Shown: positions 9,539 through 63,309, counted from the first letter of the stretch. The stretch is 64,000 bases of DNA from an uncultured Candidatus Binatia bacterium (GCA_965242525.1 OZ251459.1:3200001-3264000); one strand, 5' to 3'. Numbers and translations: made by a program. The notes: generated by a model not told the origin, from the letters alone.

Positions 9539-9580
9539 CTTCAGTTTCTCCCTTGGAAGTCTCTATCTTACGCCATCCTT

Positions 9581-9954: not shown

Positions 9955-10452
9955 ATGATCCATCGTTCGACCTCGAACGTGGGGGACGACCCCCGTGCGC
10001 ACATGGACCTCACCTGGATACGCTGGCTGCTGGACAGCCATGCGCGATGGTTGAAGCGGGATCTCGTGGAGCGGACGGGCGCGCTCGAGGAGCAGGGGGA
10101 ACGGCTCTACCTCGCGCCTTTCGTGGCGGTGTCCCACGCCCTCGGCGAAGACCCCGTCCTCAACTACGGCAACCGGCAGGCGCTCGCGTTGTGGGAAATG
10201 ACCTGGCGGGAGTTCACCGCGACCCCTTCGCGGTTGACCGCGGAACCCTTGGAGCGCACGGAGCGGGCCCGGATGCTCGAACGGGTGGCCGCGTACGGCT
10301 TCGTTACCGATTACCGGGGCGTGCGCGTCTCGCGGACGGGCCGCCGCTTCCTCGTGGAACGGGCCACCGTATGGAACGTCCTGGACGAGCGCGGGAACGA
10401 ACGAGGCCAAGCCGCCTGCTTTTCACGCTGGACGCCCCTCGACCGGGCTTGA
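9955..10452 (+). CDS. MEKHLA domain protein (start could be 10003)
   Basis: LLDSHARW, APFVAVSH, DPVLNYGNRQAL, PSRLTAE, YRGVRVSRTGRRF, VWNV motifs. Confidence 0.88.
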   Translation: MIHRSTSNVGDDPRAHMDLTWIRWLLDSHARWLKRDLVERTGALEEQGERLYLAPFVAVSHALGEDPVLNYGNRQALALWEMTWREFTATPSRLTAEPLERTERARMLERVAAYGFVTDYRGVRVSRTGRRFLVERATVWNVLDERGNERGQAACFSRWTPLDRA

Positions 10453-42964: not shown

Positions 42965-43801
42965 GTGCCGAAGATACGGTCGAGCCCGGCCATCGTGCTG
43001 CGGTCCTGGGCCTACGGCGAATCGGACAAGATCGTCTCCTTCCTGACGCGGGACTTCGGCAAGGTCCGGGGCATCGCCAAGGGGGCGAAGCGGTCCCGCA
43101 GACGGTTCCTGAACGTTCTGGAGCCGTTCACCCTCGTCCAGTTGCGGTTCCAGGAGCGCCCCCACAGCCCGCTGGCGTTCATCCATGCCTGCGACTGGGT
43201 GTACGTGTTCCGGGACCTTGCCCGGACCCTGGCCAAGATCGCACACGCCTTCTATCTCGTGGAAATCACGGACGAATTGACCCGGGAGGGCGACGACAGC
43301 CTGCTGCTGTTCGACCATTTGCGAAGCGGCCTGCACTTCCTGGAGAGGGGCCGCGAATCGGTGGAGTTCCTGGTGGCGTTCGAGTTGACGTTGCTGCGGC
43401 TGGCCGGGTACCAGCCCGCACTGGACCGTTGCCAGCGCTGCGGCGACAGGCCCCCTTCGGGGGATCCCGGACGCGGCAACGGCCGGTGGGGGTTCAGCCC
43501 CCGGGACGGCGGCGTACTGTGCCGCGGCTGCTGCGGCTTCCGCCGGGAGACGGTGCCGGTGTCGCCCGAGGCGTTGGGCATCCTGACCTACTTCCAGAAG
43601 CACGGCTGGCAGGGCGGGGAGACGCCGCGGTTCTCCCTGCCCGCGCTCCGGGAGACCCGCGGCGTCATGCCCTTGTTTATCCAGTACCAGATTAGTAAGA
43701 AACTCAAGTCCGCGGCCTTCCTGGAGGGTTCGTCCCGCCGGGACCCCGGGGAGCCGCGGCCCGCATCCCGGCGGCAGACAGGAGAACCGGAACACCCATG
43801 A
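42965..43801 (+). CDS. recO: DNA repair protein RecO
   Basis: [26 protein letters not shown], CxxC..CxxC zinc site. Confidence 0.93.
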
Positions 43802-45113
43802 ACGAACGCGCGACGATGGAAAAGGTCGTCAACCTTTGCAAACGGAGGGGCTTCATCTTCCCGTCCAGCGAGATCTACGGAGGACTCGGGAGCACCTGGG
43901 ACTACGGTCCCGTGGGAGTCGAGCTCAAACGCAACGTCAAGGAGGCGTGGTGGAAGGCTGTGGTGACCGGGCGCAGCGACACCGTGGGCCTGGACGCCTC
44001 GATCCTCATGCACCCGAGGGTGTGGGAGGCGTCCGGCCACGTGGCCGGCTTCTCCGATCCGTTGGTGGAGTGCAAGGAGTGCCACCTGCGCTTCCGGGAA
44101 GACCACGTGGAGGAAGGCCGGTGCCCCGAGTGCGGCGGCGAACTCACGCAGCCGCGGCAGTTCAACCTCATGTTCAAGACCTTCATGGGTCCGGTGGAGG
44201 ATACCGCGAGCACGGTGTTCCTGAGGCCCGAGACGGCCCAGGGGATCTTCGTCAACTTCCCCAACGTGCTGGACACCGCCCGCCGGAAGGTCCCCTTCGG
44301 CATCGCGCAGATCGGCAAGAGCTTCCGCAACGAGATCACGCCCGGCAACTTCATCTTCCGCACCCGCGAGTTCGAGCAGATGGAGATCGAGTACTTCGTC
44401 AAGCCCGGGGAGGACGAGGAAGCCTTCCGGTCCTGGCAGGAGGACCGCTTCCGCTGGTACGTGGACAACGGGGTCCGCGCCGAAAACCTCCGCATCCGCC
44501 CCCACGGCAGCGACGAACTGGCGCACTACGCCAAGGCCTGCGTGGACGTGGAGTACGAGTTCCCGTTCGGCTGGTCGGAGCTCGAAGGCATCGCCAACCG
44601 CGGCGACTTCGACCTGAGGCGGCACATGGAGTATAGCGGCAAGGACATGACCTACTTCGACGAGGCCGACCGGAGCCGCTACGTCCCCTACGTCATCGAG
44701 CCCTCCGCGGGGGTCGATCGCCCGCTGCTGGCGTTCCTGGTGGACGCCTACGACGAGGAGGAAGTGGAAGGGGAGCGGCGCATCGTGCTGCGCCTCGACC
44801 CGCGGCTGGCGCCGTTCAAGGCGGGGGTCTATCCGCTGCTTCGGAAGGACGGACAGCCGGAACGGGCCCAGGAGGTCCGGGACATCCTGAAGGAGCATTT
44901 CCCCGTGGTCTATGACCAGGCCGGGTCCATCGGCCGGCGTTACCGCCGACAGGACGAGATCGGCACGCCCTACGGCGTCACGGTGGACCACGAGACCATG
45001 AAGGACCGGACGGTGACGCTGCGGGACCGCGACGCCATGACCCAGGTGAGGGTTCCTGTGGACCGTCTCGTGGACGAGATCCGCGCCCGCATGGACCCGC
45101 GCACGAGGGCGCG

Positions 45114-45117
<4 letters not shown>
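43798..45117 (+). CDS. glyQS: Glycine--tRNA ligase, homodimeric type
   Basis: [53 protein letters not shown]. Confidence 0.96.
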
Positions 45118-47843
<2,726 letters not shown>

Positions 47844-47877
47844 GCAACGAGTCCCTCGTCCCCAGCGAAAGAACCCG

Positions 47878-48621
47878 ATGGCCGAGTTGCAGGAAATGCC
47901 GTCGCTGCGCATTCCCCGAACGATCCTTGCCGAATGGGGCGCGAAATGGTCGGGCAGCGAGGGAAGCCCGGACAGCGTTGGCGCCCCGACGCGAAAAAAG
48001 CCAAACCGCTTCGACAAGAAGCAGGGAATGGAGTTCGGCCGCATCTTCGACCAGGCGTTTGGCGAGGCTTTGGCCGAGATGCTCGGCGGCGTCCCTGTCG
48101 TTACGCCCAACGCAAACGCCCTGACGCCAGCGAAACCGGATTGCGTGGAAGTGGGGACGACCCGGGTCATTGGCGGAATCCGGCCCCAGAACTACGACGT
48201 AGCCTACCGCCCGGATGGCCCCCGAGTCGTTTTCGACAGCAAGACGTTGAACGATGCGGGGAGCATCCGCAAGAATTGGCAGAACATGATCAACGACCTT
48301 GCCTCCGAAGCGGCAACGGTCCACACCCGCTTTCCCTTCTGCATCGTCGCGTTCATCGTCGTTTTGCCCCTGCCCGCGTTGTTTGCGGCACAGCGTCGTG
48401 CGATACTCAGTACTCTGGAGCGTCTTGGTTCGAGAAAGGACGAACTGGATCAGCACCACTTGGCCGAGGCGATTTCCCTGGTGCTCTGGAAACCGGAAGA
48501 CGGTGGAATGGATGAGACTTTGCAGGACGAGGCGCCCTCGATCCACCTGCGGGCAATGAGCGAACGTATTCATGCCGCGTATGTCGATCGATACCAACAT
48601 CTCCCGCCGCACACGACGTGA
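47878..48621 (+). CDS. Putative type II PD-(D/E)xK restriction endonuclease
   Basis: NYDVAY...FDSKT catalytic-like motif; directly upstream of a DNA MTase. Confidence 0.6.
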   Translation: MAELQEMPSLRIPRTILAEWGAKWSGSEGSPDSVGAPTRKKPNRFDKKQGMEFGRIFDQAFGEALAEMLGGVPVVTPNANALTPAKPDCVEVGTTRVIGGIRPQNYDVAYRPDGPRVVFDSKTLNDAGSIRKNWQNMINDLASEAATVHTRFPFCIVAFIVVLPLPALFAAQRRAILSTLERLGSRKDELDQHHLAEAISLVLWKPEDGGMDETLQDEAPSIHLRAMSERIHAAYVDRYQHLPPHTT

Positions 48622-48643
48622 CGACGTGCTTCTGAAAAGCCGC

Positions 48644-50317
48644 ATGCCCGCCTTCCGGACCAACAAGCAATCGCCTACCTCACAGAAGCTGCGGGGAGGA
48701 TACTATACGCCCCGGGCCTTGGCCGAATACATGTGCCGGTGGGCTGTGCGCAGCCCATCGGAGCGGGTGATCGAACCGAGTTGCGGCGATGGCAGCTTCG
48801 TTTCCGCCGCCGCCCGCCTCCTGGACGGCAAGGGCCTGATAACCGCGGTGGAGATCGTGCCCGGGGAGATCGAGAAAGCCCGGGAATCCGTGGATGGCGC
48901 GCAGGTGCGGATGGACTGGAGATGCGGCAGCTTCTTCGACGCGGCTCCGGCGCTCCTGGAGGGGCGTCCCTACGACGTGGTCGTCGGCAACCCTCCTTTC
49001 ATAAGGTTCCAGTACTTCGACAAGGAGGAGCGCGAGCGGGCGTTTCGACTCGTCAAGTCGTCCGGCTACAAACCCACCGGCCTTGCCAACGCATGGACCG
49101 CGTTCGTCCAATTGTCCGCTGAATTGCTGCGCGAAGGCGGGCGCTTGGCAATGGTCGTTCCCGCCGAGTTGTTGCAGGTCAAGTACGCGGCTGAACTTCG
49201 TTGCCGTCTGCCGATGTTGTTCGAGGACGTCCATATCGTTGCTTTCGACGAATTGGTCTTTCCGCAGATACAACAGGAAGTGGTGCTGTTGCTGGGCGAG
49301 GGCCGGCGCCGCTATTCGGGAATCTGCGGCCGGCTGCACACCAAGCAGGTGGCCAACGGCGAGGCCCTCCTGGCCGAATCCACCATGTCCGAGGCCGTGT
49401 CCCACCTGCCGGAGCGGCACACGCACGGCGACATGAAATGGACGTCGCTTTTCCTGGAGGAGGAGGAGTTCCAGGTACTCAAGGAATGTGACGGCAACGG
49501 TTCCCTCGACCGGTTGGGGCGTCTGGCGGAAGTGGACGTCGGCATCGTAACCGGCCGCAACAGTTTCTTCGTCGTCAGCGAGGACCACGCGCGGAACCTG
49601 GGCGTTCGTGACTACGCGCTGGACGTGATCGGCCGGACCTCCGCGTTGCGGTCGGTTCGTTTTACCCGGCAGGATATGTTGTCCTACGCGAAATCGAACC
49701 GGTCCAAATTGCTCAACCTGAGCGGACTGGACCGCCGCCTGTTTCCCCGGGCGCTCGAAGAGTATATCCGACTGGGTGAGGCCCAGGGCGTGAGTTGGGG
49801 TTACAAGTGCCGCATTCGCAACCGGTGGTTCGACGTTCCGTCGGTTTCGGCGCCCGACGCCTTCCTGTTCCGGCAGATTCACCGGGCTCCCCTGCTGGTC
49901 GCGAACCATGCGGGGGCGACGGCGACGGATACGATCCATCGCGTAAGGGTGCACCGCAACGTGGACTGTGCGGCTTTGTGCGGTTCGATGGTGAACTCCC
50001 TTACTTTTGCATTGTCGGAGGTTTGTGGACGCAGCTATGGGGGTGGGGTTCTCGAGCTGGAGCCGCGCGAAGCGGAGAGCCTTCTGCTGCCGTACGATTT
50101 TGCCGACGGCCTGGACCTGGAGTACGTCGATGACCGTTTACGGGCTGGAGACCTGGAAGCGGCCCTGGACCACGGCGACGACGTCCTGCTGCGGCAGGGC
50201 TGCGGATTGTCGAAGGCTGACGTGGCGCGGGCGCGGGGGGCGTGGAACCGGCTGCGTCAGCGCCGGCAGAGGCGGAGACATGGCGCCCGACACAGGCAGC
50301 CCCGTGCGGATGGCTGA
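48644..50317 (+). CDS. Gamma-class N6-adenine DNA methyltransferase (Eco57I/PaeR7I-like)
   Basis: GGYYTP, EPSCGDGSF, GNPPF, GIVTG, GRSYGGGVLELEP. Confidence 0.9.
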   Translation: MPAFRTNKQSPTSQKLRGGYYTPRALAEYMCRWAVRSPSERVIEPSCGDGSFVSAAARLLDGKGLITAVEIVPGEIEKARESVDGAQVRMDWRCGSFFDAAPALLEGRPYDVVVGNPPFIRFQYFDKEERERAFRLVKSSGYKPTGLANAWTAFVQLSAELLREGGRLAMVVPAELLQVKYAAELRCRLPMLFEDVHIVAFDELVFPQIQQEVVLLLGEGRRRYSGICGRLHTKQVANGEALLAESTMSEAVSHLPERHTHGDMKWTSLFLEEEEFQVLKECDGNGSLDRLGRLAEVDVGIVTGRNSFFVVSEDHARNLGVRDYALDVIGRTSALRSVRFTRQDMLSYAKSNRSKLLNLSGLDRRLFPRALEEYIRLGEAQGVSWGYKCRIRNRWFDVPSVSAPDAFLFRQIHRAPLLVANHAGATATDTIHRVRVHRNVDCAALCGSMVNSLTFALSEVCGRSYGGGVLELEPREAESLLLPYDFADGLDLEYVDDRLRAGDLEAALDHGDDVLLRQGCGLSKADVARARGAWNRLRQRRQRRRHGARHRQPRADG

Positions 50318-50338
50318 CGACCGGAAGGGACGAACCCC

Positions 50339-51079
50339 ATGAGTGAACCGGACCATCAGTACGACGCCATTGCGGAGGCCTACAGGGACTCCAAGCAACT
50401 GTCGTTTCGGAAGTACGTCGAAGAGTACACGCTCTTCGAGATGCTGGGGGACGTCCGCGGGGCGGCGGTCCTGGACCTGGCTTGCGGCGAGGGGTTCTAT
50501 ACCCGCAAGATCCGGCAGGCGGGGGCGCGGGACGTCACCGGCGTGGACATTTCCGCGGCCATGATCGAGTTGGCCTTGCAGGAGGAACGCGCCCGTCCGT
50601 TGGGGTGCAGGTACCTGCAAATGGACGCGGCCCGGGTCGAGCTGTCCCAAGAGGTCGATGTGGTGGTGGCCATGTACCTCCTGAACTACGCCAGGACGGG
50701 GGACGATCTCCTCGGGTTCGTCCGCGCGGCCTACCGGAGCCTGCGGCCGGGGGGACGGTTCCTCGGGTTCAACGACAACGTCCGGAACGTTCCCAAAGGC
50801 GTCCAGGACTTTTCCCGGTACGGGTTCCGCAAGGAGTGCTCGGACGTCCCCGAAGAGGGTGACGCCATCGTGTACCGGATAACCAACGACGACGGGACCC
50901 GGTTCGAGTTCGAGAACTACTTCCTCCGTCCGGAGACCTATGGATGGGCCTTCCGGGAAGCCGGGTTCTCCGATTTCCGGTGGGTCGGCCCCCACCTGAA
51001 TCCGTCCCGGCGCAACGACCCCTTCTGGGACGACTTCATGGCCCGTCCCCCATTGATCGGGTTCAGCGCCTCGAAGTGA
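50339..51079 (+). CDS. Class I SAM-dependent small-molecule methyltransferase
   Basis: VLDLACGEG, GVDISAAMI, YLLNYA, LRPGGRF. Confidence 0.9.
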   Translation: MSEPDHQYDAIAEAYRDSKQLSFRKYVEEYTLFEMLGDVRGAAVLDLACGEGFYTRKIRQAGARDVTGVDISAAMIELALQEERARPLGCRYLQMDAARVELSQEVDVVVAMYLLNYARTGDDLLGFVRAAYRSLRPGGRFLGFNDNVRNVPKGVQDFSRYGFRKECSDVPEEGDAIVYRITNDDGTRFEFENYFLRPETYGWAFREAGFSDFRWVGPHLNPSRRNDPFWDDFMARPPLIGFSASK

Positions 51080-51101
51080 CGAGCGTCTTCGGTCTGCCCG
51101 T

Positions 51102-52232
51102 ATGCGAAACGACTTCCACCCCTGCACTTTCGCCCCTCCCCTGGTGTGGGCGCGCCTCATCCTCCGGAACCGGGGGGTGGCCAGGCCGTACTGGGGCAAG
51201 CTCGCGCGGGTCCTGGCCGTCACCGCCCTGGCCGCGCCCTTGCGCCTCGCCGAAGGGCTGCTCTATTCCCGGCAGCTCGCCAGGACCTCCATCGATCCGT
51301 CCCCGTTGTTCATCCTGGGTTTCGGACGTTCCGGCACCACCCACTTGCAGAACCTGATGACGCAGGACCCCGGTTACGGATACCTGGACGCCTTCCAGAT
51401 GGTGCTGCCGACCTTTTCCCTGGTCGGCCGGGGATGGTTGAGGCGGCTGATGGAAAAGGGCATGGGGGAGCAGACCCGCCCGATGGACGAAGTCAAGATC
51501 TCCATGGATGCGCCCCAGGAGGAAGAGGTGGCCCTCGCCAACTCGAGCCACCGGTCCTTCGTCCACCAACTCTCCTTTCCGCAGCAGGGCCGGCGGTTGT
51601 TCGACAAGTACGTGCTGATGGGGGCGGATCCGGACGGCGAGCCCCTGACCGAGAAGGAGCTGCGCCGGTGGGAGCGGGAGTGGCTCCGGGTCCTGCGCAA
51701 GATGACGCTCCACGCCGGCGGCCGACCCCTCCTGCTGAGAAGCACGACCCACATCGGCCGGGTCGATCATCTCTTGCGCCTGTTCCCCCAAGCGAAGTTC
51801 ATCCACATCGTCCGCAACCCGTACCACGTCTTCCCGTCGCTCCTGCACCTGTACCGCACGATGCTTCCCCTGTACCAGTTGGACCACTACGACTGGACGG
51901 AAGTGGAGGAGTTCCTCACCGCCGAGGCGTATCCGCGCGTGATGCGCAAGTACTTGGCGGACCGGGACCGGATTCCGGACGGCCACCTTGCGGAAGTGCG
52001 TTACGAGGACCTCGAACGGGACCCCCTGGGCGAGTTGGAGCGGCTCTACGCCGCCCTGGGCCTGCCCGGCTGGGAGGAGGCCCGGCCGCGCGTGGACGCC
52101 TACATACGGACCTTGGCCGGGTATCGCAAGAACGAATTCCGCATCGACCGTGCGGTCATCGACCGGGTGAACGACCAATGGGGGTTCGCGGTGGACGCCT
52201 GGAACTACCGGCTGCCGGAGGACGGAGCCTGA
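51102..52232 (+). CDS. PAPS-dependent sulfotransferase, Stf3-like
   Basis: FILGFGRSGTT 5'-PSB loop, RPMD..PQEEE, FPQAKFIHIVRNPY, RYEDL. Confidence 0.88.
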   Translation: MRNDFHPCTFAPPLVWARLILRNRGVARPYWGKLARVLAVTALAAPLRLAEGLLYSRQLARTSIDPSPLFILGFGRSGTTHLQNLMTQDPGYGYLDAFQMVLPTFSLVGRGWLRRLMEKGMGEQTRPMDEVKISMDAPQEEEVALANSSHRSFVHQLSFPQQGRRLFDKYVLMGADPDGEPLTEKELRRWEREWLRVLRKMTLHAGGRPLLLRSTTHIGRVDHLLRLFPQAKFIHIVRNPYHVFPSLLHLYRTMLPLYQLDHYDWTEVEEFLTAEAYPRVMRKYLADRDRIPDGHLAEVRYEDLERDPLGELERLYAALGLPGWEEARPRVDAYIRTLAGYRKNEFRIDRAVIDRVNDQWGFAVDAWNYRLPEDGA

Positions 52233-52234
52233 AC

Positions 52235-54220
52235 ATGGCGCTGCGGTTTGCCGAAGAGCTGCTCCTCCTGCTCCTGAACGAGGAAACGGGTGACTTGGCC
52301 GCGGTGCCCGAGACGCTCCTGGACCACACCCTGGCGGGCGCGGTGCTCATGGACTTGGCGCTGGAGAACCGTATCGACACGGACCCCGAAAAACTGGTCC
52401 TGCTCGACCCGACCCCGCTCCGGGACGACCTGCTGGACCCGCCGCTGGCGCGGATCGCGCAGGACGGGGGCACGCACGACGCCGAGCACTGGGTGCGCCG
52501 TATCGCAGGGGAAGGCGAACGGATCCGCGCCGCGGCGCTGTCCCGTCTGCTGCAAGCCGGCATCCTGGACTCCGCGGAGGAGGGCTCCATGTCCCTGTCC
52601 CACGGGGTGTCCCGGGCGCGCCGGTATCCCGCGGTGGACGGCAAGGCCCAGCGGGAGGTCCGGCTGCGGATCATGGGCGTGCTGTTCCGGGACGACATCC
52701 CCGAACCGCGCGACATCGTGCTCATCTGCCTGGCCGACGCCTGCGGCATGTTCGAGAAGATCCTGACCCGGGCCGAGCTGGAACAGGTGGGCGACCGTAT
52801 CGCCCTGGTCCGGCGCATGGACCTGATCGGGCAGGCGGTGGCCAGCGCCGTCCGCGATTCCGGGCAGGAGGCGGCGCCCGAGCAGAAACGGGTTCGCTTC
52901 AGGGAGATCCCCGTGGTCAAGGGGCTGCCCATCCTGGGGAGCGCCCGGGAGGCCGCTACGGACTTCGCCGCTTTCCTGACGTCCCGGTACCTGGAATTGG
53001 GGCCGGTGTTCCAGATCCGCCTCCTCCATCGGAAGCTGCTGGTGCTCGCCGGCCCGGAAGCCAACCGGTGGGTCAACCGGAAGGGTCGCTACCATCTCAG
53101 GTCGTACGAATCCTTCCGGGGGTTCGCCGAGGGGCTCGACGCGGTGTGGGCGATGCTCAACATGGACGGCAGGGAGCATGTCCGCTACCGCCAGGCTTTT
53201 GCCCCCGCGCTCTCCCGGGCGCGGTTCCAGGACCACCTGGGCCTCGCCGCGGACATTACCCGGCGCCACGTGGCGGCATGGCCGGTGGATCGACCGCTCC
53301 AACCGCTGCACGCGGTCCAGCGTGTCGTCGCCGACCAGATGGGCGTCATCCTGGCGGGCGCGTCCGCGGCCGACTACCTGGAGGACATGGTCTTCTTCCT
53401 GGAGACGCTCCTGACCACCGCGGTTGCGAAGCAGCTTCCCGCGTTCCTGTTCGCCCGCAGGTTCCGAAAGGCGCGCGCACGGCTGGAAGAGCTGGCCCGC
53501 AAGACGCTGGATGCCCATGGGCCCGGCGGGCCGCACCACCAATCCGGCGACTTGATCGACGACCTGATCGAGCTCCACCGCTCCGACCCGCAGCTCATGC
53601 CCGAGACCGACTTGACGGCCATGACGCTGGCGCCCTACCTGCTGGGGATCGAGACGGTGGCCAACACCATCGCGTTCACGCTTTACCCTATCCTGAAGCA
53701 CCCGGACCTGATGGAACGGATGACGGCCGAGGCCGACGCGCTCTTTGCCGAGGGCCCCCTGACGGTGGAAGGCCTGGGCCGGCTCGACGTGACCCACCGG
53801 GTGGTGCTGGAATCGTTGCGCCGTTACACCGTGACCCCGGTGGTCTTCCGCACCGTGGCCAACGGCTTCGAGTTTGCCGGCTGCCGCATCCCTGCCGGCG
53901 CGCCGGTCATCGTCGCCACCACGGTCACCCACCACCTGCCGGAGTTCTTCCCCGAGCCGGAACGCTTCGACATCGACCGCTACCTGCCCGGGCGCGCGGA
54001 GCACAGGCAGACGGACGCCTACGTGCCCTTCGGCGTCGGCACGCACCGGTGCCTGGGCGCCGGTTTCGCCGAGGCGGAGGTCCTGCTGACGCTGGCGGCC
54101 ATGCTGCACGGGGCCGAGCTCGCGCTGGACCCCCCCGGATACGAGTTGAAGATGACCACCGCTCCGACGCCGCGTCCGTCGAAGAGGTTCAAGTTCCGGG
54201 TCGTGCGGCGGCGCGGATGA
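52235..54220 (+). CDS. GPP34 (GOLPH3/Vps74-like) domain fused to cytochrome P450
   Basis: N-terminal about 210 aa: AEELLLL, LAGAVLMDLALENRI, DDLLD, RRYP, PRDIVLICLADACG. C-terminal part: GIET, ESLR, PERF, FGVGTHRCLG. One continuous frame. Confidence 0.85.
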   Translation: MALRFAEELLLLLLNEETGDLAAVPETLLDHTLAGAVLMDLALENRIDTDPEKLVLLDPTPLRDDLLDPPLARIAQDGGTHDAEHWVRRIAGEGERIRAAALSRLLQAGILDSAEEGSMSLSHGVSRARRYPAVDGKAQREVRLRIMGVLFRDDIPEPRDIVLICLADACGMFEKILTRAELEQVGDRIALVRRMDLIGQAVASAVRDSGQEAAPEQKRVRFREIPVVKGLPILGSAREAATDFAAFLTSRYLELGPVFQIRLLHRKLLVLAGPEANRWVNRKGRYHLRSYESFRGFAEGLDAVWAMLNMDGREHVRYRQAFAPALSRARFQDHLGLAADITRRHVAAWPVDRPLQPLHAVQRVVADQMGVILAGASAADYLEDMVFFLETLLTTAVAKQLPAFLFARRFRKARARLEELARKTLDAHGPGGPHHQSGDLIDDLIELHRSDPQLMPETDLTAMTLAPYLLGIETVANTIAFTLYPILKHPDLMERMTAEADALFAEGPLTVEGLGRLDVTHRVVLESLRRYTVTPVVFRTVANGFEFAGCRIPAGAPVIVATTVTHHLPEFFPEPERFDIDRYLPGRAEHRQTDAYVPFGVGTHRCLGAGFAEAEVLLTLAAMLHGAELALDPPGYELKMTTAPTPRPSKRFKFRVVRRRG

Positions 54221-54263
54221 CTGGCCTTCACGCCGAAAGCGGCCGCCGCAGGCCACGACAGAG

Positions 54264-54365
54264 TGGATTCCCGCTTTCGCGGGAATGACGGAGGTGGGGC
54301 GTTCGCGGTAATACGGGGCGGCGTCTGCGGGAATGACGGGTGTGTGGCTTTCGCAGGAATCACGG
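54264..54365 (-). repeat. REP family A copy with degenerate tandem half-copies
   Basis: TGGATTCCCGCTTTCGCGGGAATGACG followed by GCGGGAATGACG and GCAGGAATCACG variants. Confidence 0.8.
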
Positions 54366-54444
54366 AGGTGGGCCATCGTGAAAATGGCGGGTGTGGGCGT
54401 CTGCGGAAATTCCATTCTCGTGTCAAGGACACTCTGAACGACCA

Positions 54445-54495
54445 TCCCCGTTCGTCCTGAGCGTAGCGAAGCGAAGTCGAAGGGCGCGCTTTCCC
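54445..54495 (+). repeat. REP family B copy immediately upstream of the MmeI-like gene
   Basis: CCCCGTTCGTCCTGAGCGTAGCGAAGCGAAGTCGAAGGGCGCGCTTTCCC. Confidence 0.88.
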
Positions 54496-54518
54496 CCAGG
54501 TAGAAGGAACAAGGCGCC

Positions 54519-57331
54519 GTGAGGCTTTCCTGGAACGAGGTTCGGGCGCGGGCTGCGGACTTCGCCCGTGAGTGGGCGGACGCGGCCTACGAGAAGGGCG
54601 AGACCCACAGCTTCTACAACGACTTCTTCGAGATCTTCGGCGTCAAGCGGCGCACTGTGGCGCGCTACGAAGAGCACGTCCGACGCCTCGACGACACCCG
54701 CGGCTTCATCGACCTGTTCTGGCCGGGGGTGCTCCTGGTGGAGCAGAAGAGCGCCGGCCGCGGCCTTGCCGCGGCGCGGGAGCAGGCTGGCGCCTACTTC
54801 GACGCGCTCCCCGAGCGGGACCGTCCCCGCTACCAGCTCCTCTGCGACTTTCGGACGTTCGAGCTCCTCGACCGGGACGAGGGCGAGGAATGCCGTTTCG
54901 CCCTGGCCGACCTGCCCGCGCACGTGGAGAAGTTCGGCTTCATCCTCGGGGTGCAGCGGCGCACGTTCCGGGACCAGGACCCGGTGAACGTCGAAGCGTC
55001 CGAGTTGGTGGCGCGGCTGCACGACGCCCTCAAGGCATCGGGTTACGACGGCCACGACCTGGAACTGTTCCTGGTGCGCACGGTCTTCTGCCTCTTCGCC
55101 GACGACACCGGCATCTTCGAGCCCCGGGACATCTTCCTCGACTTCGTGGAGGAACGGACGGCTGCGGACGGCAGCGACCTCGGCCCCTGGCTGTCCCGTC
55201 TGTTCCAGGTGTTGCACACGCCGGAGGACCGGCGGCAGGCGAAGCTGGACGAGGACCTGGCCCGCTTCCCTTACGTCAACGGCGACCTTTTCGCCGAGCC
55301 GCTCCGCATCCCGGACTTCGACGCCGCCATGCGCCAGGCCCTGCTCGACGCCGGTGGGTTCGACTGGTCCGCCATCTCTCCGGCCATCTTCGGGGCGCTG
55401 TTCCAGTCGGTGATGGAGCCAGTGGAGCGCCGTGCGGCAGGGGCGCACTACACCACGGAGAAGAACATCCTGAAGGTGATCGAGCCGTTGTTCCTGGACG
55501 ACCTGCGGGCGGAGTTCGCGCAACTCAAGGCAAGACGCGACAGCCGCCGGGTTCCCGACCTCCACGCCTTCCAGCGGAAGCTCGGCGCGCTGCGGTTCTT
55601 CGACCCCGCGTGCGGCTGCGGCAACTTCCTCATCATCGCCTACCGGGAGTTGCGCGCCCTGGAGATCGAAGTGCTGCGGGAACTGAATCCGGGGCAGCGC
55701 CAGTTCGAGATGCTGGCGGACGTGCTGTCGGTGGTGAATGTCGATCAGTTCCACGGCATCGAGATCGGGGAGTTCCCTGCCCGCATCGCTTCCACTGCGC
55801 TGTGGATGATGGACCACATCATGAACAACCGGTTGAGCCTGGAGTTCGGACGGACCTATGCGCGGATACCCATCGAGAAGTCGCCGAACATCCGCAACGC
55901 GGACGCGTTGGAGACGGACTGGGCGGGGTGCTGCCGCCGGAGGAGTGTTCGTACGTGTTCGGCAACCCGCCCTTTGGCGGGTCCAAGTACCAATCGCCGA
56001 AGCAACGGGCGCAGGTGCGGCGCATCGCGGCTCTGGGCGGCAGCGGGGGCACCCTCGACTACGTGGCGGCGTGGTTCATCCGCGCCGGCGAGTACGTCCG
56101 GCGCGTGGAGCCGGGAAGGCCCTCTCCCCGCATCGGCTTCGTGGCCACCAACTCGATCACGCAGGGCGAACAGGCGGCGCAGCTCTGGCCGATCCTGTTC
56201 GATCGCCATGGCCTGGAGGTCGCCTTCGCCCACCGCACCTTCGCCTGGGGTTCGGACGCCCGGGGCATGGCGCACGTCCACGTGACGATCATCGGCCTGG
56301 ACGCCGCGGAACGCGGGTCAACCCAAAAGCGCCTCTTTTCCTACGAGGACGTGAAGGGCGAACCGCTCGAAAGCCGCCACGCGGTGGTCACGCCGTACCT
56401 GTTCGACGGCGGCGGACTGGCGAACCCGCACTTGGTGGTGCGGGAGGAAGGACGGCCGGTCAACAGGCTGCCGCGGCTCGTCATCGGATCGAAACCGATC
56501 GACGGCGGCCACTACATACTGGACGCCAAGGCGCGCGTTGCGCTGCTCGACGCCTGCCCGGCCGCGGAACCGTACGTCCGTCCCTACGTCGGCGCCTATG
56601 AATACATCAACGGCAAGAACCGCTGGATCCTGTGGCTCGGGGATGCGCCGCCGGAATTGCTGCGGCGCGAGCCGGCGCTCCGCGAACGCGTGGCCGCGGT
56701 GCGCGGGTTGCGCCAACGGAGCAAGAGCGCGCCCACCCGCGCCCTGGCGGAGACCCCGACGCTGTACCACGTCAACGTCATCCCCGACGCCCCGTTCCTG
56801 GTCATCCCCAAGGTCAGTTCCGAACGGCGCGAGTACGTTCCCATTGGCTGGTTGCAACCGCCGACCATTCCCAGCGACCTCGTTTTCGTCCTCGAAGGCG
56901 CCACCAAGTCGACGTTCGCCCTCCTGACCTCCGCCATGCACATGGCGTGGCTGCGGCACATCGGCGGACGCCTGGAAAGCCGCTACCGCTATTCCATCGG
57001 ACTCGTCTATAACACCTTCCCGCTCCCGTCCGTTCCGGAAGCGGACCTCGAAGCCCTGACGCCCCACGCGGACGCCGTACTCGCCGCACGCGCCAACCAT
57101 CCCGGCGCCGCACCGGCCGACCTCTACGCCCCGGACCTGACGCCGCCCGACCTTCGCCGCGCCCACCGCCAACTCGACCGCGCGGTCGATCGCCTCTACC
57201 GCAGAGCCGCGTTCGCCTCCGAACGGGAGCGAGTCGAGCACCTCTTCACTCTCTACGAGCGTCTCCAGGCCCCCCTTGTCGCAGAAGCCGCCAAGCGACC
57301 CAAGCGCAAACGCCGCGGCACGGGGCCATGA
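54519..57331 (+). pseudogene. MmeI/YeeA-like type IIL restriction-modification enzyme, frameshifted at G4 55925-55928
   Basis: FIDLFWPG..EQKS nuclease, GAHYT, FDPACGCGNFL; GNPPF, FVATNSITQGEQ, SSERREY and YNTFP lie in another frame; adding one G restores DWAGVLPPEECSYVFGNPPF. Confidence 0.9.
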
Positions 57332-57400
57332 GGCCCGGCAAACGTTCCCCGATGCCTACGGAACGTCCAGCCCGTTCCGGCTCGATTTCCCTCTCCACAT

Positions 57401-57467
57401 GGGAAAGCGCGTCCTTCGGAAAACGGGTCCTTCGACTTCGCTTCGCTACGCTCAGGACGAACGGGGG
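57401..57467 (-). repeat. REP family B copy downstream of the MmeI-like gene, inverted relative to 54445
   Basis: GTCCTTCGACTTCGCTTCGCTACGCTCAGGACGAACGGGGG. Confidence 0.88.
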
Positions 57468-57606
57468 CGGTCGCTCCGCCTTTCCATCCAGTTCGATGGT
57501 TGTTCCGCCCTTCCAGCTTGGTGGTTGCTCCGTCCTTCTCCAGTAAGGTAGAAGGCGAAGGGGGAGCAAAAAGGAGCAGCGGTCATTGCTCCGCAGACGC
57601 CTGCCC

Positions 57607-57802
57607 CGTCATTCCCGCGAAAGCATGTCCTCGCGGAAGCGGGGGCGGGAATCCATCCACTTTCCTCGCTCTTGTTGTAGAAACCTCTCATACGGGGCGC
57701 TATGGGGTTTGCTCGCAGGGTCTGGATTCCCGCTTTCGCGGGAATGACGAGACGGGGCTTTCGCGGGGATGACGGGATGGGAAGTGTCGCAACCCACACG
57801 AA
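57607..57802. repeat. REP family A inverted doublet plus conserved tail
   Basis: The left copy carries an internal insertion; the right copy and tail match about 3013-3092. Confidence 0.88.
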
Positions 57803-57858
57803 TTCCTGAAGCGCCCTTTTCTCTCCGGATAGCGCCCTTCCGGGTTGTCCGGGACCGC

Positions 57859-59085
57859 TCAGAGCACGCGCCACCAGGGGGCGGCGAGCACGTCCGGGGC
57901 CAGCCACTCGACCGCGGCCCCGGTGTGCAGCAACAGGCCCGCCCTGGCGGCGTTGCCGTACTCGGCGCGAAAGGCTCGCAGGTGGGCCGCGTCACGGAGA
58001 CGCGGGCGTCGCGTCGCCTTGACTTCGATGGGCAGCAGCCGGTTCCCGGCCTCGACCACGAAGTCCACCTCCTCGCCCGCCGCGGTGCGCCAGTAGAGGA
58101 CCTCGGCCCGGTCGAGCCGCGAGTCGCGCCAAGCCAGGATGTCGTGCAGCACGAGGTTCTCCAGGAAGGCGCCCGCGGGTTCCGCCTCCTGGGCGAGATG
58201 CAGGGCCACTCCGGTGTCGCCCCAGTACAGCTTGGGAGACTTGATCAGACGCTTGGTGCGGTTGACCGCATAGGCGGGAAGCCGCACGAGCAGGTACGAG
58301 GTTTCGAGCAGGTTGAGGTAGCGGCTCACGGTGGGTTGAGGCAGCGCGGCGTCGCGGCCAAGCTCCGTCTGGTTGACGAGTTGGCCCACGCGGAGACAGG
58401 CCGCCCGCATCAGCCGGCGGAAGTCGGGCAGTGACGAGATGGCGGAGAGGTTCCGCAGGTCGCGCTCCAGGTAGGTGCGCACGTAGCCGTCGAACCAGAC
58501 CGCTCGGTCGTGGTGCGTCCCGAGTTGGAGGGTCGGCGACGGGAAGCCCCCGCGCCGCGCCGTCTCGCGCCAGTCCTCCGGTTCTCCGGGCTGCGCGGCC
58601 ACCAAGTCGAGCCATTCCTCGTCGCGGGTTTCGAGGAGCTCCTCCCAGACGCCTCCTCGCCCCAGGCCGCGCTGCTCCCGTTGCGTCATCGGCCAGAGCG
58701 TCACGTAGCTTGCCCGGCCGGCGAGCGACTCGGAGATGCGGTGCATGAGGAGCAGGTTGGCCGACCCGGTGAGCAGGAATCGCCCCGGCTGGCGCTTCCG
58801 GTCGATGGCGCGCTTCACTGCGTGCAGGAGGTCCGGCACGCGCTGCACTTCGTCGAGGGTCACGGGCTGGACGCCGCCCAGCAGCGCCTCGGGGTCGCGC
58901 CGCGCCGCGTCCGCCACGTCGAGGTCGTCCAGCGAGAGGAACCGCCGACGGCTCCCCGGCGTCAAACGCTGCGCCAGCGTGCTCTTTCCGGTCTGGCGGG
59001 CGCCCGTCAGCACCACCGCGGGCATGACGCGGAGACGGTCTTCGAGGCTCGATGCAGCCAGACGCGGAAGGGCAGGATCATTCAT
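57859..59085 (-). CDS. AAA+ ATPase with DUF4143 (PD-(D/E)xK-like) C-terminus
   Basis: GARQTGKS, LDEVQR, LTGSA, ESLAGR, GGFP, KSPKLY, EVDFV..IEVK. Confidence 0.92.
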   Translation of the reverse strand: MNDPALPRLAASSLEDRLRVMPAVVLTGARQTGKSTLAQRLTPGSRRRFLSLDDLDVADAARRDPEALLGGVQPVTLDEVQRVPDLLHAVKRAIDRKRQPGRFLLTGSANLLLMHRISESLAGRASYVTLWPMTQREQRGLGRGGVWEELLETRDEEWLDLVAAQPGEPEDWRETARRGGFPSPTLQLGTHHDRAVWFDGYVRTYLERDLRNLSAISSLPDFRRLMRAACLRVGQLVNQTELGRDAALPQPTVSRYLNLLETSYLLVRLPAYAVNRTKRLIKSPKLYWGDTGVALHLAQEAEPAGAFLENLVLHDILAWRDSRLDRAEVLYWRTAAGEEVDFVVEAGNRLLPIEVKATRRPRLRDAAHLRAFRAEYGNAARAGLLLHTGAAVEWLAPDVLAAPWWRVL

Positions 59086-59377: not shown

Positions 59378-62300
59378 CTACCAGCGCCAGCGGGTATAGA
59401 GGGTGAGGCTGTTGGTCCTGCCGCCGCCGGCCCGTGTCTCGTGTTGGCCCTCCAGGTCCATGGCCATGGCCTTCCCCAACTTCATCCGGCTGCCCAGACG
59501 GTAGCCTCGGCGCCCCGGTCCGCTGATGGACACGCCGCCGTAGGGGGTCAGCAGGCCCGCGCCTTGGTGCGTCACCACTCCGTAGCCCACGTCCAGGTCC
59601 AGGCGCTGCGCGGATAGCCCCCGCGCCGCGTCATCGGGGTCCACGCCGGCCCGCAACCCCGACGGGCCGCGCCACATCTCCTCCAGTCGGCTCCCCTGTG
59701 CGCCCCACACCGGCGCCATGGTGAACCACAGACCTCCGCCGAACTCTCCCGGGTCCAGCCGCAGGGTCACGCTCGCGCCCCATTCGTCGAAGGACGACTC
59801 CTCGTGGAGCAGCAGGTACCGGCCCCGGGCCTCGACACTCAAGCCCAACTCCGTGTCCGCGAACTCCAGGCCGCCCCCCAACTCCGCGCCCAGACCCGTC
59901 TCCGCGTCGCCGCGGTCCCACCGGCCCCCGATCTCCAGGAACGGCGTCACCTGCGAGACCTCCGAGACCGGCCACGCGGTCCGGCCTTCCAGCATCAGCC
60001 GCATCCGTTGGGCATCGCCCGAGGCCTTCGGCAGCCCCTGTGCGGCGCCGACCTCCAGTCCGGCCAGGAAGGCGTCGGCCTTCATCGCCAAGTCGATCTT
60101 CCGCCAGGTGAACAACTCCTGCCGGGCGCCCACCGAGGCCAACAGCATCTCCAGGTCGGAATCCGCCTTCCCGGCCTCGTCCTCCAGGTCGGTATCGCCC
60201 CAGCCCGCACCCAGCAGACCCCACACGCCCAAGCCGGAGCGCGGGGTCCAGTGCACGTAGGGCAGCACGCTGGTCAGGCCCACGTCCACCTTGCCCCTGG
60301 TCACTCCGGTGGTCTCGTAGTCCACGTCGCCCCAGCTTTGGGCCAGCGCCATGCCCAGCAACACGTCCCGGCGCATGCGGTAGTCGAGGCCCACGTAGCC
60401 GGTGAACACGTCGCCGTCCATGGTGAAGCCGTCCACGGGCCGACCGCCGAACCCGTTGGCCGTGCCCCGGCCCCACAATGTCCAGCCCGTGGTCCGGCCC
60501 CGGGACTCCCGGTCGCTCAACGGCAGCTCGAACCGGCTCCCGGCCAGTATCCCCGCCGCGGACACCTGCCGCCGGCGCCACGTCCGTCCGTCCCTCCCGG
60601 CCCACGGGCCGGCCGCGGCATCGAAGTCGCGCCAGACCGTGGAAGCAGGCGGACCCGCAGGGTCGTCCCACGCGCCGTTGCCTGCCGCGGACGAGTGGAC
60701 CTCCACGCCCAGGACCCGCGCCATGCCGAAGACCATGTCCGCGGCGCCGTCGCGCCCCCCGGGGTCCAGCCGCAGCCGCTGCCCGCCCACGACCGCCTGC
60801 GCCTCCGAAGGCGCACCCGTGAACCGCCCGCCGATGACATCCACCGCGTCCGTCGCCAGCGTGCGGCCCACTCCCGCCAGCACCATGTGCAGCGCCCGAT
60901 GGCGCGCGCCCTCCGTGTCGTCGTCCGTGATCGTCACCGTTCCCGAAGCCGCCTGCGGGTCCGGCTCGGCGTTGGTGGCCTCCGTCAGCCGCACCCGGAA
61001 CGTCTCCGGGGGCTCCACCCGCAGGTCGTCCAGGGTCTCCACCCGCAACGTCTTCTCCCGGTCGCCCGGCCGGAACGTCAGGCGCCCGTCCGCAGCGCGG
61101 TAGTCCTCCCCCGCCTCGGCCGTACCGTCCTCCGTGGCCCACCTCACCGTCACCAGGACTTCGGAGGGCTCGTCCAGCACCACCCGCAGCTCCGCAACTT
61201 CGCCTTCCACCGCGGCGGCGGCCCCTGCGGCCCCTATCGTCGAGGCCCTCGTGACCGACGCGACGGCCTTGCGGTAGGGCGTGCCGGTAACCTCGGCGTA
61301 TTCGTCGCCGTGGCCGTTGGCGAACATGGGGGTGACGCGCACGGTGTACATGACGCCGGGGTCGAGGTCCTCGATGGTGTAGGTGACCCGGTTGGCCTCG
61401 GCGTAGGGGGTAGCCCGGACCGAGGAGATGGAACGCAGGGCGCTGGCGCGGTCGTCTTCGACGGAGATGCAGGTCCGCCCTTCGGGGACGCATCTGTCTT
61501 CCCGGTCCGGGTCGCCGCCGTACTCCTGTGCGTCGGACCTCCACTGTACGCGGTAACCGGTCGCGTCGGGGACCCTCAGCCACGATACGTCCAGGCTCGC
61601 CGCTCCCGGCGTCACGGACGCGGTGATCTGGTCCAGCGGCGCGCCGGTGGCCTCGGCAGAGGGGGCGCCGGCGTAAAAGGTCCCGAAGTCCGGCTTGACC
61701 CGCACCGTGTACGCGACGCCGGGGGTGAGGCCGGGAATCGTGTAGCTCCTCGTGTTCACGCCGCTCACCACGCGGTGCCGGTCCATGCCGGGGACGTCGG
61801 CGTAGTCCGCCGCGTACTTGTAGGTCACGGTGTCGCTCCAGTGTTGCGCGCCGGACCTCCACTGCACCTTGTAGCCCTGGGGTTTGGTGCGCGTCTTCGA
61901 GTTCTCGGCGTCCGGCAAAGGGTCCCAGGCGACCGTCAGTTGTCCCGGCCCGGGCGTTACCCTCACGTTCTGCACCTGCCATTGCCGCGCCTGCTCCACG
62001 TCTCCTCCCCACACCGTGACGCCCCTTCCTCGAAGGGTCGCGATATGGCCGGCGGCGTCGGCGTTCAGGGTCGTAACGTCGTCCAGCGAGACGATGTCCC
62101 CGGAACTCAATCCCGAGTTGAGGACCAGCGGCGAGATGTCTTCGACGCCGATGGCGTCGAGATCGAAATAGTAGATGCTGGTCATGCCGCTCAACGGCGA
62201 GAGGTCGCGGAGTCGATAGTTTTCCTGGAGTGTCAGGCGGGTCAGGGACGTCATCCCCCGGAGCGGCTCGATGTTCGTGATCCGGTTGCCGGCGAGGGTC

Positions 62301-63094
62301 AGCCGATCCAGGCCGGTGAGGCCGGCGAGGGGGGTGAGGTCCGAGATCCGGTTGTCGCTGAGGTATAGCCGGGTCAGGCCGGTGAGGCCGGCAAGGGGGC
62401 TGAGGTCCGAGATCCGGTTCACGGTGAGGCTTAGCTGCCTCAGGTTGGTGAGGCCGGCAAGGGGGGTGAGGTCCGAGATCCGATGGCTCTCGGGGAGTTG
62501 CAGGATTTGCAGGTTGGTGAGACCGGCGATCGGCGTGAGGTCCTGGAGGTCGGCATGTATGAGCGTCAGCTCGGTCAGGGAAGTCAGGCCGGCGAGGGGG
62601 GCGAGGTCCGAGATGGGATGATACCGGAGCCGCACGCGGGTCAGCCCGGTGGCGTGCTCCAGCCCCGTCAGATCGTGGATGCGGCCGGCCACGTTGAACT
62701 GGTCCGAGAAGGGGCCCACGAGCTGCAGGCAGCCGGTGGGGTCCGCATAGATGCAGGTCCTCAGCCCCGCCATGTCCGCGTGGGTGATGGTCGCTCCGCT
62801 GGCCTTGTTCAGCGCCGCCTCCACCTTCGCCCGCAAGTTGGCGTCGGGGATGTGCACCGGGTCGGTGGGCTGGGCCCCCGCGCCGGTATGCGCCGCAGCC
62901 TCATGCGCGGGCGCCGCGAACGAGACCACGACCGCAACGGCCCACAGCGCGAGCAGGACGCGAAGGGAACGCCCGGGGTTTCGACCCGCGGCGGCGCAAC
63001 CCCTTATCGGGGGGGGGGGGGGGGGGGCAGTGCATTCGGAAATCCCTTGCATGGTCGTCATGGCGTCCTCGGCTTGCCGGAGGTTGGTATCCAT
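59378..63094 (-). CDS. Autotransporter-like surface protein: internalin-type LRRs, two Fn3 domains, Calx-beta, C-terminal beta-barrel (start could be 63061)
   Basis: IPDANLRA cap, 22-aa LRRs (ISDLTPLAGLTNL), GYKVQWRSG..YTIPGLTPGVAYTVRV, TEDGTAEAGEDY..LTF..E.F, terminal aromatic YTRWRW. Confidence 0.85.
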   Translation of the reverse strand: MDTNLRQAEDAMTTMQGISECTAPPPPPPIRGCAAAGRNPGRSLRVLLALWAVAVVVSFAAPAHEAAAHTGAGAQPTDPVHIPDANLRAKVEAALNKASGATITHADMAGLRTCIYADPTGCLQLVGPFSDQFNVAGRIHDLTGLEHATGLTRVRLRYHPISDLAPLAGLTSLTELTLIHADLQDLTPIAGLTNLQILQLPESHRISDLTPLAGLTNLRQLSLTVNRISDLSPLAGLTGLTRLYLSDNRISDLTPLAGLTGLDRLTLAGNRITNIEPLRGMTSLTRLTLQENYRLRDLSPLSGMTSIYYFDLDAIGVEDISPLVLNSGLSSGDIVSLDDVTTLNADAAGHIATLRGRGVTVWGGDVEQARQWQVQNVRVTPGPGQLTVAWDPLPDAENSKTRTKPQGYKVQWRSGAQHWSDTVTYKYAADYADVPGMDRHRVVSGVNTRSYTIPGLTPGVAYTVRVKPDFGTFYAGAPSAEATGAPLDQITASVTPGAASLDVSWLRVPDATGYRVQWRSDAQEYGGDPDREDRCVPEGRTCISVEDDRASALRSISSVRATPYAEANRVTYTIEDLDPGVMYTVRVTPMFANGHGDEYAEVTGTPYRKAVASVTRASTIGAAGAAAAVEGEVAELRVVLDEPSEVLVTVRWATEDGTAEAGEDYRAADGRLTFRPGDREKTLRVETLDDLRVEPPETFRVRLTEATNAEPDPQAASGTVTITDDDTEGARHRALHMVLAGVGRTLATDAVDVIGGRFTGAPSEAQAVVGGQRLRLDPGGRDGAADMVFGMARVLGVEVHSSAAGNGAWDDPAGPPASTVWRDFDAAAGPWAGRDGRTWRRRQVSAAGILAGSRFELPLSDRESRGRTTGWTLWGRGTANGFGGRPVDGFTMDGDVFTGYVGLDYRMRRDVLLGMALAQSWGDVDYETTGVTRGKVDVGLTSVLPYVHWTPRSGLGVWGLLGAGWGDTDLEDEAGKADSDLEMLLASVGARQELFTWRKIDLAMKADAFLAGLEVGAAQGLPKASGDAQRMRLMLEGRTAWPVSEVSQVTPFLEIGGRWDRGDAETGLGAELGGGLEFADTELGLSVEARGRYLLLHEESSFDEWGASVTLRLDPGEFGGGLWFTMAPVWGAQGSRLEEMWRGPSGLRAGVDPDDAARGLSAQRLDLDVGYGVVTHQGAGLLTPYGGVSISGPGRRGYRLGSRMKLGKAMAMDLEGQHETRAGGGRTNSLTLYTRWRW
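63009..63027. repeat. G19 homopolymer (C19 on the coding strand) inside the autotransporter 5' region
   Basis: Read directly; encodes PPPPPP before the hydrophobic signal region. Confidence 0.85.
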
Positions 63095-63309
63095 CGGGTT
63101 TGCTCCTCTCCGGTCCGCCTTGGCCTTCGTCCACCCCGGAACCGGCCGCGAGTCGATGACGGAAAGGGAGACGGAACATAAGGACAACTCTTCATCTTGT
63201 CAAGGCCGAAACGCCGCCGCGCCGCCCGGACCCTATAGTTTTCCGGCCGCCGGCCGATCAGTCAGTTTTCAAGGGGTCGAAAAGGGGGAACCTCGTCGGA
63301 GCAAGGCGT

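Follow-up and report, generated by a model that had tools for sequence, protein, structure and literature searches.

The stretch of DNA analysed here, 64,000 nucleotides from an uncultured Candidatus Binatia bacterium (GCA_965242525.1, OZ251459.1:3200001-3264000; hereafter the window, with positions counted from its first letter), contains a sulfotransferase gene followed by a gene in which a GPP34 domain is fused to a cytochrome P450. Judging from the sequence, we think it probable that these two genes constitute a mobile tailoring module of P450 and sulfotransferase whose substrate is lipophilic, possibly a sterol-like compound of the host. In this two-gene module, acquired horizontally, the P450 domain would serve as a heme-thiolate monooxygenase that adds a hydroxyl to the substrate, and the sulfotransferase would move sulfate from 3'-phosphoadenosine 5'-phosphosulfate (PAPS) onto the new or a neighbouring hydroxyl. 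The substrate would most likely be a sterol-like or other membrane lipid from the sponge host or its community. The GPP34 domain may be an accessory for membrane or lipid association or for partner binding, and not a canonical reader of phosphatidylinositol 4-phosphate (PI4P); the adjacent methyltransferase would be a strain-level neighbour outside the core. The initial annotation of the locus knew of no description of such a system, which does not hold for the fusion: a 2025 report in Microbiome named it "GPP34_L" and counted 656 such proteins, all of them in sponge symbionts, according to its main text (PMC11706023). Neither the conserved link of the fusion to sulfotransferases and other conjugating enzymes nor the loss of the PI4P pocket was found in the literature searched; nor did that search find any link of GPP34 to a sulfotransferase or a sterol. 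The locus is made up of the following features.

50339-51079, + strand: class I S-adenosylmethionine-dependent methyltransferase, 246 aa (Pfam Methyltransf_25, 1.8e-19)
51102-52232, + strand: PAPS-type sulfotransferase, 376 aa (Pfam Sulfotransfer_3, 2.8e-39)
52235-54220, + strand: GPP34-cytochrome P450 fusion ("GPP34_L"), 661 aa, two Pfam domains
52250-52855, + strand: GPP34 (GOLPH3/Vps74-like) domain, fusion residues 6-207 (Pfam, 3.6e-36)
52919-54136, + strand: cytochrome P450 domain, fusion residues 229-634 (Pfam p450, 5.5e-49)
54264-54364, no strand: palindromic repeats TTCCCGC-TTTC-GCGGGAA, resembling repetitive extragenic palindromic (REP) elements, directly 3' of the fusion stop codon

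The three open reading frames (ORFs) at 50339-54220 all lie on the + strand, with gaps of 22 bp and 2 bp, as initially annotated. The last of them was described as a single ORF joining a GPP34-like domain to a complete P450, and this is borne out by both Pfam matches and by the reading frame itself: 52235-54220 is free of stop codons and encodes GPP34 first and P450 second without interruption. The fusion ATG, 2 bp past the sulfotransferase stop codon, is preceded by GGAGG 13 nt upstream, and is nested in a longer GTG-initiated ORF (51146-54220). The REP-like repeats form the downstream edge of the module. Contig depth over them is very high in four metagenome runs, which indicates that the element is a repeated one.

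By every sequence criterion, the P450 domain is predicted to be a working monooxygenase. It has the I-helix motif G471-x-E473-T474, the E526-x-x-R529 motif and the heme loop FGVGTHRCLG with Cys606 (nt 54050-54052). When 81 fusions were aligned, the heme Cys, the ExxR motif and the I-helix Thr were found in all 81, and residue 473 was E or D in every one of them. An AlphaFold2 model of the fusion has a mean pLDDT of 86.4 and a pTM of 0.78. The nearest solved structure, in both sequence and fold, is Methylococcus CYP51 (E 3e-39, TM 0.83-0.85, 26-27% identity), followed by CYP184A1, human CYP51, CYP204A3, BM3-type enzymes and CYP3A7. All of these nearest solved P450s bind sterols or fatty acids, and the CYP3A7 structure is bound to a steroid sulfate. 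Although the sterol 14-alpha-demethylase CYP51 is thus the best solved match, membership of that family was ruled out by the low identity and by the I-helix sequence LGIETV, where G-I-E-T is the acid-alcohol pair of an ordinary hydroxylase; the CYP51 I-helix signature contains a His.

The sulfotransferase also retains its catalytic motifs. The segment GFGRSGTT (residues 73-80, nt 51318-51341) and R238-x7-S246 (nt 51813-51839) are the 5'-phosphosulfate loop and the 3'-phosphate motif, respectively. Residues G73, R76, G78, T80, R238 and S246 are invariant in an alignment of 34 family members, and a conserved 65-residue extension precedes the Sulfotransfer_3 domain. The family profile matches solved structures 2z6v (1.1e-21) and 2zq5 (1.7e-16), with both motifs aligned. 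We presume these to be mycobacterial Stf9 and Stf1, whereas the entries themselves read "putative uncharacterized protein". The motifs that had been quoted as Stf3-like (RSGTT, R-MD..PQE-E, FPQAKFIHIVR-PY and RYEDL) do occur in the protein, most of them on invariant columns of the 34-sequence alignment. Since they are common to 2z6v and 2zq5, they are family-wide and not specific to Stf3. The window genome (4.23 Mb, 99% complete) has an APS kinase and can make PAPS; the sulfotransferase is the sole gene of its kind in it.

The association of sulfotransferase and fusion was examined in 54 other fusion loci. Thirty-five of these came from a scan of public species-representative genomes, which yielded 551 confirmed relatives; the best 80 were taken as neighbourhood loci, and 35 of the 80 hold full-length fusions. 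The remaining 19 came from 24 genomes of the same genus. Partners were sought by tblastn (E<1e-8, at least 50% query cover, within about 8 kb) and named by Pfam searches on representatives, with the following outcome.

Sulfotransferase, same strand, upstream or downstream of the fusion: 14/54 loci
EcKL kinase and MFS transporter: 5/54 loci
Acyl_transf_3 (membrane acyltransferase): 5/54 loci, plus one cut by a contig end
CysNC (PAPS synthesis): 1/54 loci (L004), directly upstream, in addition to the L004 sulfotransferase
Sterol_MT_C methyltransferase, Rieske KshA_C oxygenase, MMPL/Patched/sterol-sensing pump and flavin adenine dinucleotide (FAD) oxidase: 12/54 loci, eleven in the same genus and one in a Gammaproteobacteria metagenome-assembled genome (MAG)
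MMPL pump alone: 3/54 loci
FAD halogenase, type III polyketide synthase (PKS) and ICMT methyltransferase: 4/54 loci, Vicinamibacterales
Homologue of the window methyltransferase: 0/54 loci

The expected co-occurrence of a sulfotransferase with homologous fusions was therefore seen, on either side of the fusion and always on the same strand. There are one to three tandem copies of the sulfotransferase, for example two in L001 and three in L003. HlyD/OEP or MFS efflux genes stand alongside the conjugating partners in some related loci. A longest contig of identical length links 18 of 120 clusters of the fusion with 19 of 120 clusters of the sulfotransferase, an indirect measure in which many contigs are short. 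Given the conserved sulfotransferase neighbour, we infer that the order of reactions would be P450 first and sulfotransferase second. In the four Vicinamibacterales MAGs (L021, L022, L023 and L033), the halogenase, PKS and ICMT genes precede the fusion and lie at about 4.6-8.0 kb of each locus, a set that presumably resembles phenolic-lipid (alkylresorcinol-type) operons.

A tree of 54 fusions, from which L031 was left out (translated piece <560 aa), splits into a clade A of 16 rows, with the sterol-type cassette, and a clade B of 38 rows that includes the window fusion. The partners in clade B are a sulfotransferase in 14 rows, an acyltransferase in six, EcKL in five and a PKS in four, with none in nine; a conjugating enzyme is thus next door in 25 of the 38 rows, compared with 0 of the 16 in clade A. 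The window fusion falls in a clade of seven rows with 100% support, all linked to a sulfotransferase and labelled Latescibacterota, Alphaproteobacteria, Bryobacterales, Pseudomonadales and Longimicrobiales, i.e. at least five higher taxa. Identities of the fusion and of the sulfotransferase drop in parallel across loci. Partners can also be exchanged between sister fusions: L015, which has an acyltransferase, joins L038, which has a sulfotransferase, with 100% support. Such swapping fits one type of hydroxylated product that receives different conjugates. The window fusion is 45-48% identical to the best matches in its own genus, compared with 71% to a Latescibacterota MAG and 93% to metagenome proteins, which identifies the window pair as a horizontal import.

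The fusion architecture is widespread. A Pfam check for GPP34 (PF05719) and p450 (PF00067) had been suggested together with a count of the architecture, and both domains were found in all of at least 120 homologues among the matches listed (48-93% identity). The 35 loci with full-length fusions carry the labels Latescibacterota, Gemmatimonadota, Acidobacteriota, Binatia, Dehalococcoidia, Rhodothermales and Proteobacteria. Runs labelled sponge metagenome contain 38-51% of the sampled window words, and contigs of one of these (run X6) span 50328-54290 at about 98% identity. The window genome has exactly one such fusion, one stand-alone GPP34 and one sulfotransferase of this kind. The stand-alone GPP34 paralogue (C1:1749967) was considered as part of the module and set aside, its neighbours (UbiD, a permease and PPK2) being unrelated. 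The second P450 of the window (19002-20276, minus strand; Pfam 3.9e-30) was likewise rejected as a distant P450 next to an epimerase. It is the only other P450 in the genome and lies about 31 kb from the fusion; the epimerase gene, of NAD-dependent epimerase/dehydratase type, is on the other strand at a distance of about 500 bp. Four GPP34 matches in same-genus genomes (G004:C1:385808-386464, G012:C1:4732183-4732845, G024:C1:4375777-4376427 and G019:C1:528964-529680) have in-frame TAG or TGA stops, which suggests decaying copies of the family.

The N-terminal domain is a GPP34 domain, as initially annotated: besides the Pfam match, a profile of 25 fusions matches GOLPH3 (3kn1, 4.3e-09) and Vps74 (2zii, 1.9e-08). 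The 25-sequence profile was needed for this, as a PDB search with the single GPP34 domain sequence returned nothing relevant. The fusion has no signal peptide; its leucine-rich N-terminus is the first GPP34 helix. In GOLPH3, PI4P is contacted by W81, R90, R171 and R174, and the R90L substitution alone abolishes binding (PMC3596250). We mapped these residues by profile alignment to 3kn1 and 9qpq and counted the counterparts over the 81 fusions. Pro stands in place of W81 in 65/81, and the five residues to each side contain no Trp; the R90 counterpart is Ala in 80/81; the R171 counterpart is Asp or Glu in 70/81; and the R174 counterpart, the sole pocket residue that is mostly kept, is Arg in 67/81. 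The R90 column falls within a firmly aligned block (LAGAVLMDLAL versus LRGCMLIELAL). With these pocket residues lost, canonical PI4P binding by the GPP34 domain of the fusion is unlikely. This weakens both the published proposal of a PI4P-binding effector and the earlier idea that GPP34 docks the P450 to the membrane.

The methyltransferase is a strain-level companion of the pair and not a conserved member of the module: in ~98% identical contigs it remains joined to the sulfotransferase, and no homologue was detected by tblastn beside any of the 54 other fusions, contrary to its original placement in the unit. For example, a contig of run X5 (~98% identity) spans 49429-51915 with the two genes still joined, and a contig of run X6 covers 50328-51826 at ~98% identity and then has ~1.7 kb unlike the window just upstream of the methyltransferase start. 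Longest contigs of identical size were seen for only 1 of 120 methyltransferase clusters when compared with the fusion clusters. Its NCBIfam matches all fall far below their cut-offs, with weak UbiE/UbiG/MenG-type matches among them. We had also considered a gene of vertical lineage descent, given the 64-66% identical matches labelled "Gemmatimonadetes"; this was dropped, as 25 relatives have no match at E<=1e-40. Contig depth shows gaps over 48038-50207 in the runs, which were not used as evidence by themselves.

A sterol-like substrate for the window pair is the leading guess and remains a guess. No squalene or oxidosqualene cyclase domain was detected in the window genome or in five same-genus genomes, so any sterol modified by these bacteria must come from outside the cell. 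Sterol_MT_C genes are present in 11 of the 24 same-genus genomes, compared with 0 of 16 genomes from other genera of the order and 0 of 14 control genomes, and those copies that were mapped are only a few kb away from a clade A fusion. Functional bacterial sterol methyltransferases have been described in gene clusters of sponge symbionts (Nat Commun 2023, PMC10070321), a report whose main text makes no mention of P450 or GPP34. The clade A fusions resemble those clusters in adjoining Sterol_MT_C and an SdmA/KshA-like Rieske oxygenase within the genus of the window. The window genome differs in lacking a sterol methyltransferase as well as a cyclase, and its fusion is only 31-34% identical to those of clade A.

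That second class of fusions (L100-L110, in genomes G014, G008, G016, G015, G019, G017, G024, G022, G007, G001 and G020) has a conserved synteny of an MMPL/Patched/sterol-sensing pump, an FAD amine-oxidase-type enzyme, a Rieske KshA_C protein, a class II aldolase and one or two Sterol_MT_C genes. Five of these genomes were checked for a cyclase domain and have none. The window genome keeps an aldolase of this type (89% identical, C1:2799952-2800632). It has no match to that fusion class, to the Sterol_MT_C methyltransferase or to the FAD enzyme, and its matches to the pump and oxygenase are weak (22-33% identity) and lie elsewhere in the genome.

Two known systems offer precedents for the proposed chemistry. 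Cyp128 and Stf3 are adjacent in Mycobacterium tuberculosis and act in that order on menaquinone-9, a precedent invoked initially and indeed in print; according to the same source, the two genes are on different strands in the cases checked there (PMC7404182). The window pair shares with them a P450 adjoining a sulfotransferase of the same broad Sulfotransfer_3/mycobacterial type and a proposed order of hydroxylation then sulfation of a membrane lipid. In contrast, CYP128 has no GPP34 domain, its substrate is the cell's own menaquinone, and the window pair is mobile across phyla. In gut Bacteroides, BT_0416 sulfates host cholesterol and its gene adjoins PAPS genes (PMC9417993); L004 likewise has CysNC beside the fusion and the sulfotransferase, an arrangement that also places a symbiont sulfotransferase near PAPS genes. 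However, the BT_0416 cluster contains no P450, and its habitat is the gut and not a sponge. Of the hydroxylate-and-sulfate operon originally put forward, the P450/sulfotransferase pair holds as an inference; a conserved methyltransferase and PI4P docking are not supported.

The tight spacing is not peculiar to the three genes: the DNA methylase upstream of them ends 21 bp ahead of the methyltransferase, and the stretch from 43798 onward is co-oriented throughout. Co-transcription of the sulfotransferase and the fusion would follow from the 2-bp gap and the conserved adjacency; a promoter and terminator scan of 43000-58000 was uninformative, with 0 promoter-like sites and 6 terminator-like sites, compared with 8.5 expected by shuffling. 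Several observations weigh against the tailoring module. No ferredoxin or reductase gene is present within the cluster. The heme loop (598-608) is, with the linker (213-218), a region of weak confidence in the structural model. In the survey, 40 of the 54 other fusion loci had no sulfotransferase within 8 kb, and nine of the 38 clade B rows had no recognised partner, two of them cut by contig ends. The sampling of loci is also biased, because the 80 loci were the best of the 551 confirmed matches. With respect to the substrate, the sterol evidence comes from a sister clade of low identity to the window protein, and the PKS-linked subclade indicates that the fusion family is not restricted to sterols. 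Lastly, this P450 lineage can do without GPP34, as there are relatives of 42-54% identity that consist of the P450 only and have neither GPP34 nor a membrane helix. No membrane helix takes the place of GPP34 in the 13 P450-only relatives, which have short hydrophilic N-termini (maximum 19-residue hydropathy 0.85), and a simple anchor-swap argument is not supported.

The published model, in which a secreted GPP34_L effector binds host PI4P on phagosomes and blocks their maturation so that the symbiont persists, with the P450 as a helper, appears to us quite improbable. It draws strength from the fusion being reported solely in sponge symbionts of many phyla (main text of PMC11706023), and by its fold GPP34 is a homologue of GOLPH3 and Vps74, which are PI4P effectors. 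In addition, the window encodes a large internalin-like leucine-rich repeat protein of eukaryote-like kind, and near-identical contigs occur in runs labelled sponge metagenome. The window fusion shares with GPP34_L the order of domains in one ORF, the length class and the sponge habitat signal. However, the PI4P pocket is lost, the signal peptide is absent, and the fusion is paired with a sulfotransferase. The P450 motifs are invariant across the 81 fusions, which argues for selection on a catalysis that needs heme, oxygen and a redox partner, and the gene sits closely among enzymes and pumps for small molecules that belong to the cytoplasm or inner membrane. The report itself analysed flanking genes for stand-alone GPP34 and not for the fusion, and its main text does not contain the words "sulfotransferase", "sterol-" or "sulfat-".

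Two further explanations keep the chemistry and change the substrate. The pair could be a detoxification module, in which P450 and sulfotransferase, as phase I and phase II enzymes, inactivate a toxin of the sponge holobiont and the product is expelled; the toxin would be a lipophilic xenobiotic other than a sterol, for instance a terpenoid, an alkaloid or a halogenated aromatic. This overlaps in mechanism with the tailoring module preferred here and differs solely in substrate and purpose, and we give it a minor chance. The partners found with related fusions, namely a sulfotransferase, an EcKL kinase and an acyltransferase next to efflux genes of the MFS or HlyD/OEP kinds, form a set that mirrors detoxification in animals; they swap between sisters such as L015 and L038, and cross-phylum spread is typical of resistance-like cassettes. 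However, no pump gene lies beside the pair in the window, fusions of the sister clade are associated with a sterol methyltransferase and with a pump that has a sterol-sensing domain, and the nearest solved P450s include CYP51 and the steroid-sulfate-bound CYP3A7, though CYP3A enzymes are also drug-metabolising. It seems very doubtful that the pair instead hydroxylates and sulfates the cell's own membrane lipid or quinone, as in Cyp128/Stf3-like sulfomenaquinone synthesis, with the methyltransferase adding a methyl group. The Cyp128/Stf3 precedent, the broad family shared with the solved mycobacterial-type sulfotransferases, the weak UbiE/UbiG/MenG-type matches, and the subclade that follows a phenolic-lipid type III PKS set would all agree with such a role; in addition, strains at ~98% identity retain the methyltransferase beside the pair even when other sequence takes the place of the upstream DNA methylase. 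Nevertheless, a core-lipid function would be odd for a pair that was imported horizontally not long ago and occurs in unrelated phyla, the methyltransferase is absent beside the other fusions, with NCBIfam scores far below every cut-off, and the folds closest to the P450 are CYP51-like.

No gene signature reported for sponge symbionts is more striking than the GPP34-P450 fusions, and the sole published idea of their role is manipulation of the host phagosome. Their gene neighbourhoods point to small-molecule chemistry, in which hydroxylation would be followed by sulfation, phosphorylation or acylation, and the sister clade sits in sterol-type cassettes. If this is right, the origin of the sterol sulfates and other conjugated lipids of sponges could be tested directly, symbiont and host would exchange lipids in a manner comparable to the sulfation of cholesterol by gut Bacteroides, and the role of a bacterial GPP34 domain would be redefined. 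Polyhydroxylated steroids with one to three sulfate groups, and even halogenated steroids, are known from sponges (PMC6723502, PMC7551063, PMC8145587). A bolder and rather unlikely extension of the tailoring module is that such modules are the enzymes behind sponge polyhydroxylated sterol sulfates of the halistanol, topsentiasterol and gracilosulfate types. Host sterols taken up by the bacteria would be hydroxylated by the P450 and then sulfated by one to three tandem sulfotransferases; in sister modules, EcKL would yield sterol phosphates and the acyltransferase sterol esters. GPP34, having lost the binding of PI4P, would handle lipids or membranes, and the "symbiosis factor" would be an enzyme of sterol chemistry.

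Restriction-modification genes flank the three genes on both sides. The co-oriented run begins at 43798 with a class II tRNA synthetase-type gene, and a pyruvate phosphate dikinase-type gene comes next. Upstream, an Eco57I-like DNA methylase (48572-50317) ends 21 bp before the methyltransferase. Downstream of the fusion, an MmeI-like restriction-modification gene (54519-57331) appears frameshifted: ORF 54519-56285 encodes the MmeI_N domain, the helicase-spacer and a portion of the methylase domain, and the remainder would lie in the frame of ORF 54572-57331. Contigs from runs X6, X10 and X11 have an extra A after 55926. The gene is bracketed by exact 27-nt direct repeats of the REP-like palindromic element (54264-54290 and 57723-57749) and by a 68-nt inverted repeat (54427-54494 and 57418-57485). 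Contigs in three runs join 54291 to ~57721 and skip the MmeI-like gene. Contig depth over the repeat elements is several-fold to hundreds of times that of neighbouring stretches, from which it follows that the flanking elements are repeated in the community. Further along, 59378-63187 (minus strand) encodes a protein of 1269 aa that combines leucine-rich repeats resembling those of internalins with a Calx-type segment; eukaryote-like repeat proteins of this kind have been reported for sponge symbionts. At the other end of the window, positions 8001-10000 have a GC content of 0.535, compared with 0.62-0.72 in the rest.

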